Part shown: positions 5,247-10,227 of the stretch, one piece after another | How positions within the stretch are numbered: the stretch's first letter is position 1 | Layout: each line of letters opens with the position of its first letter | Origin: a virus | Virus record (IMG/VR): IMGVR_UViG_3300031746_000001 | Length of the DNA: 64,000 nt | Reading direction: 5' to 3' (one strand) | Translations under genes and position numbers: made by a program | The notes under the pieces: model-generated | What the model saw: only the letters and a program-made list of their open reading frames with translations | The model's database searches: none | Told to the model about the DNA's origin: nothing

Positions 5247-5258
5247 TGCTGGCGCCAT
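5247..5258. repeat. Partial copy of the dispersed palindrome (TGCTGGCGCCAT)
   Basis: 11-bp match to the palindrome core, immediately after the response regulator stop. Confidence 0.6.
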
Positions 5259-5662
5259 CATACCACCAGCGTCTTGTCCCCGTTCTCGCTAGAAACGATC
5301 CTACGAACGTCTTCCAGAAACGCATTCGGTTTGAACGCCGGAGTCCCCTTCGTGATGAACTTCCGAATGCCCATTAAAAGGCTTCGCTTCTCGGGCTTGA
5401 GATCGGCCTCCTTTAAGGCCGTCAGAACAATCACCGGCACGTTTCTCATCTCATCGTCCCGCTTCATCTGCTCGAACACTGTGAACCCGTCCATATCCGG
5501 CATCATAAGGTCCAAAACTACGAGCTGTGGTTTGATCTCCCTGATCTTCTGCAATCCCGACACCCCTCCATCCGCCAGAGCTACAGTATACCCGTTATGC
5601 TCGAGGAGGTCTTTCAGCATCTCCCTAACGAACATGTTGTCGTCCACGATTAGGATACTCAT
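5258..5662 (-). CDS. Single-domain response regulator (CheY-like receiver)
   Basis: ILIVDDN, VVLDLMMPDMDG (phospho-Asp), VIVLTA and FITK: all canonical receiver residues present. Confidence 0.92.
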   Translation of the reverse strand: MSILIVDDNMFVREMLKDLLEHNGYTVALADGGVSGLQKIREIKPQLVVLDLMMPDMDGFTVFEQMKRDDEMRNVPVIVLTALKEADLKPEKRSLLMGIRKFITKGTPAFKPNAFLEDVRRIVSSENGDKTLVV

Positions 5663-7636: not shown

Positions 7637-7813
7637 CTATTGATCTTCACGTTCATCGTCATCATCGGGAGTAGGAACGCGCCGTACCATAACAATCGGA
7701 AACGGTGGAACCCCCATGTGCGGGGCAACGTTCCCTGTCGTCGTGGCGCTCTCTACCGGAGTCCACTCCGCAGGGCCACCGTCCGGCTTCTGTGCGGCGC
7801 GTCCCTTATCCAT
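7637..7813 (-). CDS. 58-aa microprotein resembling the mature N-terminus of the major capsid protein
   Basis: Below the ORF-track cut-off; hand translation MDKGRAAQKPDGGPAEWTPVESATTTGNVAPHMGVPPFPIVMVRRVPTPDDDDEREDQ; SD AGGTG; fills the gap between the sheath relic and the tube gene. Confidence 0.65.
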   Translation of the reverse strand: MDKGRAAQKPDGGPAEWTPVESATTTGNVAPHMGVPPFPIVMVRRVPTPDDDDEREDQ

Positions 7814-7820
7814 GATTCAC

Positions 7821-7862
7821 CTATTGGGCCTTCGTCGTCTTCTGCATGAACTGGAACACGAC
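7821..7862 (-). pseudogene. Displaced original 3' end of the tail sheath gene (VVFQFMQKTTKAQ*)
   Basis: GTC GTG TTC CAG TTC ATG CAG AAG ACG ACG AAG GCC CAA TAG encodes exactly the last 13 aa of the sheath ORF. Confidence 0.93.
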
Positions 7863-8653
7863 TACGCGGCCCACTTGTAGCCGTAAAAAGGTTGAATCTC
7901 ATTTGGACAACAACCAATGTAAGACAGGAAACTATTCGTCGAAGAATCTGAAATTCCTATCACATTGTTTGACTTCTGCCGAGAAGCTTTAAATCCTAAA
8001 TTATGGATTTTCCTAACGAGCAACTCGACATCATCAACAGAAAAACCCTGCGTAGACAATAGTATTTTGCGACGGCGTCCTCCTGGACGGTGAAGCAAGT
8101 ATCCGTCTCCGATATACCACTGTCTTACAACCAGAGGTTTTAAGTCGACATCCAAAGGAACGATCTTTCTTCCGTTGTCGTAAAACATTTTGTGCAATGA
8201 GAGTAGCTCGGGATACCTCAGAGATGCATAGTGATGAACTACACTTATGGCTCCACTTTTCCAGACCGTTCTGGTCTTTTGTATTTTCCCAGATCGATAC
8301 AGTCCGAAGCCTCTGAAGGTCTTGTCCAACCATTGGATATACCCCAGGTGCTTAGAACCACTCTGAAATCTTGCCGATCTCTCATTATCGGAGTGAAGAT
8401 GCCCATCTCCCAGAAGCTCTCCGACCAAAAATTGAATCGCTTCTTCCGAGAGGCTAACGTGTTTCTCTCTTGTAAGATAGATAGCGTCCGCACACGACCT
8501 TCTTGGGATGCCAAACTTCACCATCCACATTTGAATGGCGTTGCTGGTCACCCCAAGATCGACCGCGATTTGATGGAGAGACTTCCTGCCCGATACGTAT
8601 TGGCTCCGAAGCCAATCTTCAGTCATCCATTTATAGAGCGGACGCCGATCCAT
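7862..8653 (-). CDS. Free-standing LAGLIDADG homing endonuclease with N-terminal HTH
   Basis: Motifs FLVGELLGDGHL and VRQWYIGDGYL; N-terminal WLRSQY...SLHQIAVDLG...WMVKFGI HTH; AT-richer than its flanks. Confidence 0.9.
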   Translation of the reverse strand: MDRRPLYKWMTEDWLRSQYVSGRKSLHQIAVDLGVTSNAIQMWMVKFGIPRRSCADAIYLTREKHVSLSEEAIQFLVGELLGDGHLHSDNERSARFQSGSKHLGYIQWLDKTFRGFGLYRSGKIQKTRTVWKSGAISVVHHYASLRYPELLSLHKMFYDNGRKIVPLDVDLKPLVVRQWYIGDGYLLHRPGGRRRKILLSTQGFSVDDVELLVRKIHNLGFKASRQKSNNVIGISDSSTNSFLSYIGCCPNEIQPFYGYKWAA

Positions 8654-8697
8654 TCTTACTGAGCCTTGGTTGTTTTTTGCATAAATTGAAAGACCAC
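7863..8697 (-). mobile_element. Homing-endonuclease cassette (recoded sheath 3' end plus endonuclease gene) inserted in the tail sheath gene
   Basis: Deleting 7863..8697 restores an intact sheath gene (...GAG TTC|GTC GTG TTC CAG...) encoding an identical protein. Confidence 0.88.
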
Positions 8698-10227
8698 GAA
8701 CTCGGCTGGTCTCTGCGGTGCGATCCCCACCTTGATATAGAGGAATCCGGCCTCCACAGCCTCCGATGGGTTGTTGGTCTCGTCGCAGACCACGAAGAAG
8801 GCTTCCTCCGGGGTATTCCCTGCGAAGTAGCCCTCGTTGTAGTGGAACAACAGGAAGCTCTCCATCTGGAGCTTGGCCTTCAGCCGGGTCCCGGCGTCGT
8901 TATTCTCGAACACGATCCAGTGCGTGGCATCGAACGTGCTCTTCTCGAGGTACTGGAAAGTCCGCACGACCGACACGTAACGCCACAGGGTATCGAGGGA
9001 ACCCGTCCGGGCGCCCCAGACACAGCGGCCCGTCTGAGGGGTGCTGATCAGGGGGTTGATCCGTGCGGGGTAAATCAGATCCCGCTCGGCCTTCGTCAGC
9101 GTCCGCTCGAGATCGATGATCCCGGACAATGCCCCATCCGTGATCCCGGCAGGCGCCTTCGCCACGTTCCGGTTGTTGTCCGTCGCGGCATAGACCCCGG
9201 CGACCAGCCCGACGTTCGGGAACAGCTTCGGCCTGCCGAGGTTGAGCGGGTCCTGAATCTTCACCCAGGGATAGTAGACGGCATACCGCTGGGAGTTCTT
9301 GTTGAGGGTCGTCCGCATGAACGTCAGGGAGTCCTGCGGAGAAAGCCCGCTCGGGGTCTGGCAGATGGCGAAGACATACTTGCGGTAGTCGGCGTAGTCG
9401 ATCAACGCCCCCTGCACTGCCGCCGCTGTCGCGCCATCGGTATACCACATCTGGTCCGGAGCCACGAGCATGAACATCTCGTCGATGCTGTTGAGGCTTG
9501 CGAGAGCCCCGGACTGCGATGTCCCCCAGATGGCCTGGGTGGGCGCCGTCCCCTCCGTTCCGCCCGAGCAGGACGTTCCGGAAGGAAGCGCCGCGGGCAC
9601 TCCACCGATCCCCTTCTCCACCCAGATGAAGTTCGACCCGGCGTTGATCACCTCCGGGAAATACTGCGGAGAAGCGGCATCGACGAAGTCGACTGCTGTG
9701 AACGCCTCGACCTGCAAGACCTCCGAGGCTGGGGCGTCCTGGTAGAACACAGCCACGTCATACTTGAGCGGGCTGTAGTCCTCGTTCGGGGTGACCGTGA
9801 TCACGATCCGGTTGCCCCACTTCCCGGGCTCCTTGAGAGTGGTCTTCCCGTACCACTTCCCAGCCCAGATCGTCCACTCGTTGGACGGGGTGACGTGCTT
9901 GGCTGTTATGGCGTCCGCTCCGACCAGCCGGGCGATATAAGCCCGCAGACCGCCCTTGTTGAAGAACATGGCCACCGACTGGGGCAGGTCGAAGAACTCG
10001 TAGACCGTGCCGCCGTCGGTGTAGCGGTTCATTCTGCCGAACTTGGTCTCGTAGTCGGCATAGCCCGTGATGAACAACGGGTACGGAGCGTTGCTGATAA
10101 GAGCGTCGACCGGGCCCCGCTCAGCGATACCAGGGAACACGCAGGTGGACGTCCCGACACCAGCTATCGCCCTGGCGCCTTCGCTCTTTTCCTGGATATA
10201 GATTCCAGGCGACAGATATTCGGGCAT
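8656..10227 (-). CDS. Tail sheath protein (T4 gp18/FI-like)
   Basis: MPEYLSPGIYIQE, FFNKGG, YAVYYPW, KAPAG, INPL, VWGART, WRYVSV, WIVFENND, FFVVCD, PAEFVVF. Confidence 0.97.
   Translation of the reverse strand: MPEYLSPGIYIQEKSEGARAIAGVGTSTCVFPGIAERGPVDALISNAPYPLFITGYADYETKFGRMNRYTDGGTVYEFFDLPQSVAMFFNKGGLRAYIARLVGADAITAKHVTPSNEWTIWAGKWYGKTTLKEPGKWGNRIVITVTPNEDYSPLKYDVAVFYQDAPASEVLQVEAFTAVDFVDAASPQYFPEVINAGSNFIWVEKGIGGVPAALPSGTSCSGGTEGTAPTQAIWGTSQSGALASLNSIDEMFMLVAPDQMWYTDGATAAAVQGALIDYADYRKYVFAICQTPSGLSPQDSLTFMRTTLNKNSQRYAVYYPWVKIQDPLNLGRPKLFPNVGLVAGVYAATDNNRNVAKAPAGITDGALSGIIDLERTLTKAERDLIYPARINPLISTPQTGRCVWGARTGSLDTLWRYVSVVRTFQYLEKSTFDATHWIVFENNDAGTRLKAKLQMESFLLFHYNEGYFAGNTPEEAFFVVCDETNNPSEAVEAGFLYIKVGIAPQRPAEFVVFQFMQKTTKAQ

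Follow-up and report, generated by a model that had tools for sequence, protein, structure and literature searches.

Judged from sequence, the tail sheath gene of a T4-like myovirus holds a real, well-controlled insertion of a gene-end-replacing endonuclease in an essential phage structural gene. We think it fairly likely that the insert is a free-standing homing-endonuclease cassette, which lives inside the essential gene by replacing its end. What appears to be new is the phage sheath setting of a layout like that of the mORFs of fungal mitochondria, a second nuclease family at the same site, and replacements of other gene ends by the family of the endonuclease.

The window, by which we mean the whole 64,000-nt stretch of DNA that was analysed, comes from a virus of roughly 160 kb with gp23, gp20, prohead protease and two gp19 genes. 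On the minus strand the order is sheath body, foreign 14-codon end, endonuclease ORF and original sheath end (Table 1); the sheath ORF as it now stands (10227-8656) encodes 523 aa. The insert is made up of a 42-nt replacement end, 2 nt and the endonuclease gene, its single ORF, which starts 2 nt past the sheath stop and whose TAG shares the first base of the downstream copy. The likely ribosome-binding site of the following ORF shares bases with the stop codon of the stranded end (the stub). Positions 8001-8500 form the sole 500-bp block below 49% GC in the window, and no sigma-70 promoter was found near the element.

Table 1. Features of the sheath locus and its insert, in window coordinates
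Feature	Coordinates	Strand	Evidence
Tail sheath gene body, codons 1-510, native and GC3-rich; left homology arm	8698..10227	-	PF04984/PF17482 domains, phrog_23; 19% synonymous difference from empty alleles
Replacement sheath end of the element, codons 511-523 and stop, in frame	8656..8697	-	GC3 0.43; 13/13 (L003) and 10/10 (L071) changeable codons differ
Endonuclease gene, 263 aa, HTH and two-motif I-SceI-type LAGLIDADG	7862..8653	-	PF03161 E 1e-21; D83/D183; pLDDT 95.5; best fold 1r7m
Whole putative mobile cassette, 835 bp; a shared GT lets the borders slide by 2 nt	7863..8697	-	Absent in G001/L003 and L071
Stranded original sheath end; probable right homology arm	7821..7862	-	41/42 nt identical to L003; GC3 0.93
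58-aa ORF after the stub; context, outside the element	7637..7813	-	Kept in both empty alleles

The complete relative G001 (locus L003; 82-90% DNA identity in the region) lacks exactly the 835 bp from 8697 to 7863, and a second relative, L071, is also without the insert, so that element-free alleles do exist in related phages. A sequence-only reading of the window had placed the insertion at the conserved PAEF motif and had taken the downstream copy for the original sheath end. Both statements hold: judged against the empty alleles, the insertion point lies within sheath coding sequence directly after PAEF, and the two relatives without the insert match the downstream copy, which is therefore the original end. 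The upstream copy, differing from L003 and from L071 at every changeable codon against 19% in the gene body, arrived with the element.

Deletion of 7863-8697, which had been said to rebuild the gene, does restore the frame; the natural empty alleles differ from the rebuilt gene at two synonymous positions, 15 nt or less upstream. Over the 30 bp that surround the insertion point, L003 and L071 do not differ. Within 20 bp both element junctions depart from the empty site (4 nt on the left, 7 nt on the right), and the rebuilt site differs from it by 1 nt. Sheath tail residues vary even inside the clade, three positions being different in L071. Among ten window-specific changes, eight run from GC to AT, the same direction as the element's own bias. 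A search of the complete empty genome G001 for an endonuclease homologue, made without a positive control, found none.

Some further observations concern the surroundings. The 58-aa ORF, which separates the stub from the tube gene, is present in L003 and L071, is uncalled in databases, and has a weak similarity to the N-terminal arm of a capsid protein (E 0.29). A response-regulator receiver gene lies in the tail operon (5258-5662, minus strand) and is kept in L003. An HNH-bearing intein (PF14890, PF13392; 18033-19178, minus strand) lies within a host ORF that is very small, at about 57 aa, and the corresponding gene of G001 is intein-free. The ENA contig VvLSp4qL, from a carrier strain, has an identical endonuclease, differs by six substitutions in the sheath, and has an extended tape-measure gene (1320 versus 1154 aa).

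The endonuclease and the two sheath ends

The protein has an N-terminal HTH at about residues 10-55, followed by the LAGLIDADG domain. Its catalytic aspartates D83 and D183 are intact, invariant in 66 homologues, and aligned with the motifs of I-SceI and I-WcaI (profile E 3e-21). In the predicted structure we find the two-domain monomeric LAGLIDADG fold, with I-SceI (1r7m) as the best match (E 9e-14) and TM scores, normalised by target, of 0.74-0.76 to I-SceI and I-WcaI. Like these PF03161 enzymes it has two motifs with acidic residues, along with their profile and fold; it differs in its extra N-terminal HTH, in an identity of only about 20%, and in not being intron-encoded. The family numbers 228 representatives at E <1e-30. 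Nothing in the sequence suggests decay, and we infer that the enzyme would cleave the empty sheath allele and home into it.

The closest homologue, P0002 (47%; L064:2777-4388), lies behind a Phage_Mu_F gene whose GC3 drops from about 16/20 to 5-7/20 over its last 60 codons. Neither a stub nor an empty allele was found for this locus, and the AT3-rich gene end is only suggestive of a related case.

The sequence-only reading had reported a duplicated sheath terminus with the same peptide in a synonymous spelling, and this is confirmed: both copies specify an identical run of 13 residues before the stop, with 30/42 nt in common and every one of the 12 mismatches at a third codon position. It had counted 12 of 14 codons as different; the 12 stands and the denominator does not, since one of the 14 is a Met codon, which leaves 13 that can change. 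The copies agree over at most 5 consecutive nt, in line with the claim that they are too diverged for easy recombinational excision. GC3 is 0.84 in the sheath body and 0.49 in the endonuclease, and the two copies fall on either side (Table 1). The replacement end has a log-likelihood of -11.5 under endonuclease codon usage and of -16.7 under that of the host, and for the stub the preference is reversed.

The probability of 12 or more differences among 13 codons is 3e-5 under host codon usage, 0.013-0.014 under uniform or endonuclease usage, and 0.09 at an AT3 of 0.75. In sister sheath pairs with 87-90% protein identity, 67-76% of synonymous codons differ, and some sister sheaths keep identical or near-identical tails. 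Of the 13-codon windows in such pairs that also differ in GC3, 3.5-20% show 12 synonymous differences, so that an end borrowed from an AT-richer sister phage would suffice. The idea of recoding as a special process is thus not supported as it was put, a foreign end from a lower-GC3 sister phage being enough to fit the divergence. Divergence of the copies probably still matters as a filter, because a copy too alike would be subject to cleavage or lost through recombination. No donor was found for the replacement end: no other LAGLIDADG relative was found beside a sheath gene, and the only other viral contig with the same tail peptide is an empty allele.

Related layouts at the sheath and at other genes

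Locus scans used alignment A2, the broad alignment A1 being too diverse. A scan of related sheath loci gave two, L019 and L020, in which HTH-led genes stand immediately behind AT3-shifted sheath tails. Their products combine the HTH with a T7 endonuclease I-like PD-(D/E)XK domain and are unrelated to LAGLIDADG; the two further homologues found, P0282 and P0283, are likewise preceded by a sheath gene. Four phages (L019, L020, L204 and L205) share the layout, and the sheath site, of the window's cassette, with a PD-(D/E)XK nuclease in place of LAGLIDADG; in each the nuclease ORF has an old copy of the sheath tail as its in-frame end. Across the final 11 codons of these four, 42/44 residues match the working tail, and 23/41 changeable codons differ. 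L271, a fifth member, lacks a stub, as a donor would be expected to, and in the closest relatives of L020 both nuclease and stub are missing. Novelty had been claimed for a single sheath case, which understates the matter: from these loci, the sheath end is a recurrent target for two unrelated nuclease families.

In all five sheath cases with two copies, the copies agree in lineage-specific residues, and between L204 and L205 both tail copies change residues together. This leaves room for a long residence in which the carried end tracks the host at the protein level.

Other nuclease-like genes were seen near sheath genes. About 1160 nt past the sheath stop of L209, a second nuclease gene (HTH, with an HNH motif by eye) lies in the tail operon of a PD-(D/E)XK cassette. 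In other phage groups (L052-L058) long zinc-ribbon genes with weak restriction-nuclease-like matches directly follow the sheath stop; no stranded sheath end was found behind them, the long genes of L053 and L058 included.

Among the LAGLIDADG homologues we searched 87 testable clusters for a stub with a replacement, restricting the search to gene boundaries. Six clusters, the sheath case included, gave both (scores 40-70, against a shuffled-pairing 99th percentile of 32-33), and about 81 had no detectable stub. The duplicated-terminus layout looked for among homologues is thus present in five further clusters, one of them borderline. The replaced end is the 5′ end in L145/146/148, in L136/137/140/143, in L132 and in the borderline L149, and the 3′ end in L188/189. 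By this comparison, about five loci besides the sheath have had a 5′ or a 3′ gene end replaced by a member of the family. L145 and L146 have the nuclease and the replacement gene start in common and different stubs, as expected if the stub derives from each recipient, which fits movement between alleles. In the non-sheath LAGLIDADG cases the two ends differ in protein, and 24/58 shared changeable codons differ in sum.

A similarity in L166/L171 was rejected, as it looks like a repeat and lies away from gene boundaries; L116, L175 and L119 scored at or near the null level. The family member in L119 (36-104, 100-960) adjoins the end of a tmRNA gene, and a short duplicated stretch flanks it on both sides.

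Alternative explanations and proposed spread

An assembly chimera of two strains might be suspected in DNA of metagenomic origin with a duplicated gene end, and it had been named as an outcome that would overturn the interpretation. Assemblies from three sources (Logan, ENA and JGI) give the identical layout in ten contigs, L070 spans both copies with zero mismatches to the window across the element, and with an overlap of just 2 nt an assembler has nothing to misjoin; an artefact is thereby ruled out for practical purposes. Nor does a self-splicing intron (group I or archaeal-type), whose removal would restore the original gene, have more than a very slight chance. Removal does restore the frame, PF03161 enzymes are typically intron-encoded, and a distant homologue (L002:2807-3757) lies, by eye, within a group I-like intron of the split ribonucleotide reductase gene (nrdJ) of a phage, without an Rfam match at gathering score. 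Against this, no Rfam intron match was found in the insert even at E 5; the border can be placed in three registers, and in none do a U at the exon end and a G at the intron end occur together; the fold at the 5′ border is no better than that of shuffles (z -0.08); the unspliced sheath gene is already complete; and an insert consisting of the 42-nt end, 2 nt and an ORF leaves no room for a ribozyme core. As far as sequence signals go, the absence of splicing presumed in the sequence-only reading is borne out.

Two other explanations, which we consider unlikely to about the same degree, accept the insertion and differ on what followed. The carried end may have been recoded in place: duplicated within the lineage, it would have diverged synonymously under selection against self-cleavage and repeat recombination while the protein was kept. 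Consistent with this are the identity of 13/13 residues, variable tail residues included; changes at 12/13 codons where the body shows 19% (binomial 2e-8), with the probability of 0.013-0.014 under uniform or endonuclease codon usage; four changes that are GC-neutral or toward GC; and the protein-level covariation of the copies in L204 and L205. The same divergence has a probability of 0.09 at the higher AT3 and is empirically reached in up to a fifth of sister windows, its GC-to-AT changes follow the element's own bias, and a conspicuously recoded case is the kind that a reader selects. Comparable cassettes differ at just 23/41 and 24/58 changeable codons, and far fewer changes would be needed to escape a site of about 20 bp or to block recombination. 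The insert may otherwise be a passive scar, left by a one-off illegitimate recombination that brought in a nuclease gene with its donor flank, the enzyme cutting elsewhere or nothing here and the duplication being irrelevant to spread. A scar would suit the near-identity of all the carrier strains found, the distant cut sites that are usual for the T4 seg/mob genes (PMC2988022), and the lack of a detectable stub in most family clusters; a right border exactly at the nuclease stop, a left border at a conserved motif, an intact ORF and active site, and the recurrence of the layout at the same site with another nuclease family speak against it.

For the homing cassette that we favour, the endonuclease, starting just past the sheath stop, would be co-expressed late with the sheath. 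In a mixed infection it would cut the empty allele near the PAEF motif, and the break would be repaired with the sheath body as left arm and the stranded end as right arm, so that the 835 bp are copied; spread would resemble intron homing, minus the splicing. Since the junctions no longer match the site and no shared run exceeds 5 nt, the cassette should be immune at both junctions, should not loop out, and should be copied by repair that does not end short of the nuclease gene. As to origin, the endonuclease gene may once have followed the sheath gene in a sister phage richer in AT. An initial invasion by a homologous join on the left and a non-homologous join at the nuclease stop on the right would have imported the donor's sheath end and stranded that of the recipient. 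We count against the homing model that all carriers found are near-identical strains and that no donor was found for the replacement end. A simple old foreign donor does not readily explain copies that are protein-identical in a variable tail, or that change together as in L204 and L205. T4 free-standing endonucleases usually cut far from their own gene, which means that the cut may lie away from the junction.

The before-and-after alleles indicate how conserved coding sequence in an essential virion gene can house a homing endonuclease without splicing, and two nuclease families at one sheath site suggest that a way of exchanging gene ends among phage structural genes has been overlooked. With a 30-bp candidate target and two natural junction variants, the locus makes target, immunity and the role of the stub directly testable. 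A broader proposal seems to us possible, if doubtful: that gene-end replacement is a general third way, beside introns and inteins, into essential phage genes, that at least two unrelated nuclease families have converged on the last strand of the sheath, and that the carried end is matched in protein and selected for maximal difference in DNA. If true, the carried-end reading would be a natural counterpart of ‘home-and-rescue’ gene drives. For annotation the layout is a trap, as stranded sheath ends are fused to nuclease C-termini.

Comparison with known systems

Inteins are fused in frame and carry splicing motifs; here a stop codon divides sheath and nuclease, and PF03161 is the sole match. 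Integrase elements carry replacement sequence in attP at icd and tRNA sites, and they too enter a gene and supply a replacement 3′ end, so that the target stays functional (PMC10111431). In contrast, the sheath cassette has no integrase, no att identity core (2 nt are shared at the borders) and no excision, and its mobility would proceed via break repair.

The ‘intronless homing’ of T4 seg and mob genes involves free-standing genes whose cut sites are usually distant (Edgell et al. 2010, PMC2988022). The sheath endonuclease is likewise a free-standing phage gene without intron or intein, promoter-less in a host operon, with co-conversion of flanks expected, and by analogy intronless homing may supply the phage repair pathway for the proposed spread. 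T4-type genes differ in being intergenic, with the neighbour gene unduplicated, in cutting at a distance, and in being of the GIY-YIG or HNH type; a duplicated gene end is absent from that review (PMC2988022), and T4-type insertions within genes (mobA, Aeh1 mobE) split the protein rather than repair it.

Closer in setting are the HEG-islands of ICP1-like phages, where fragments of essential genes beside endonucleases are proposed as recombination substrates (Barth et al. 2023, PMC10055350). There, as here, endonucleases lie beside essential structural genes, tail operons among them, and unrelated nuclease classes swap at one locus. The islands are multi-gene and endonuclease-bracketed, and the passages considered describe neither a short carried replacement end nor the sheath gene; the gene fragments are, to that extent, a partial precedent (PMC10055350). 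We found no explicit phage case of a gene-end-replacing endonuclease, in a sheath gene or elsewhere, in the open-access literature that was searched.

The nearest likeness is to the mORF gene hybrids of fungal mitochondria, known from atp6 of Allomyces macrogynus and from atp6, atp9, cox2 and nad3 of Glomus (Beaudet et al. 2013, PMC3630166). In these mostly LAGLIDADG elements, as in the sheath cassette, a foreign in-frame C-terminus stands upstream of the endonuclease, the native C-terminus is stranded downstream and matches element-free relatives (here L003; Table 1), and there is no intron. The sheath cassette differs in its phage structural gene, in a replacement of just 14 codons that is protein-identical, and in being known from sequence alone. 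As the term mORF is scoped to fungal mitochondrial DNA and the host here is a T4-like myovirus, we describe the cassette as one that would work like a mORF and do not file it as one.
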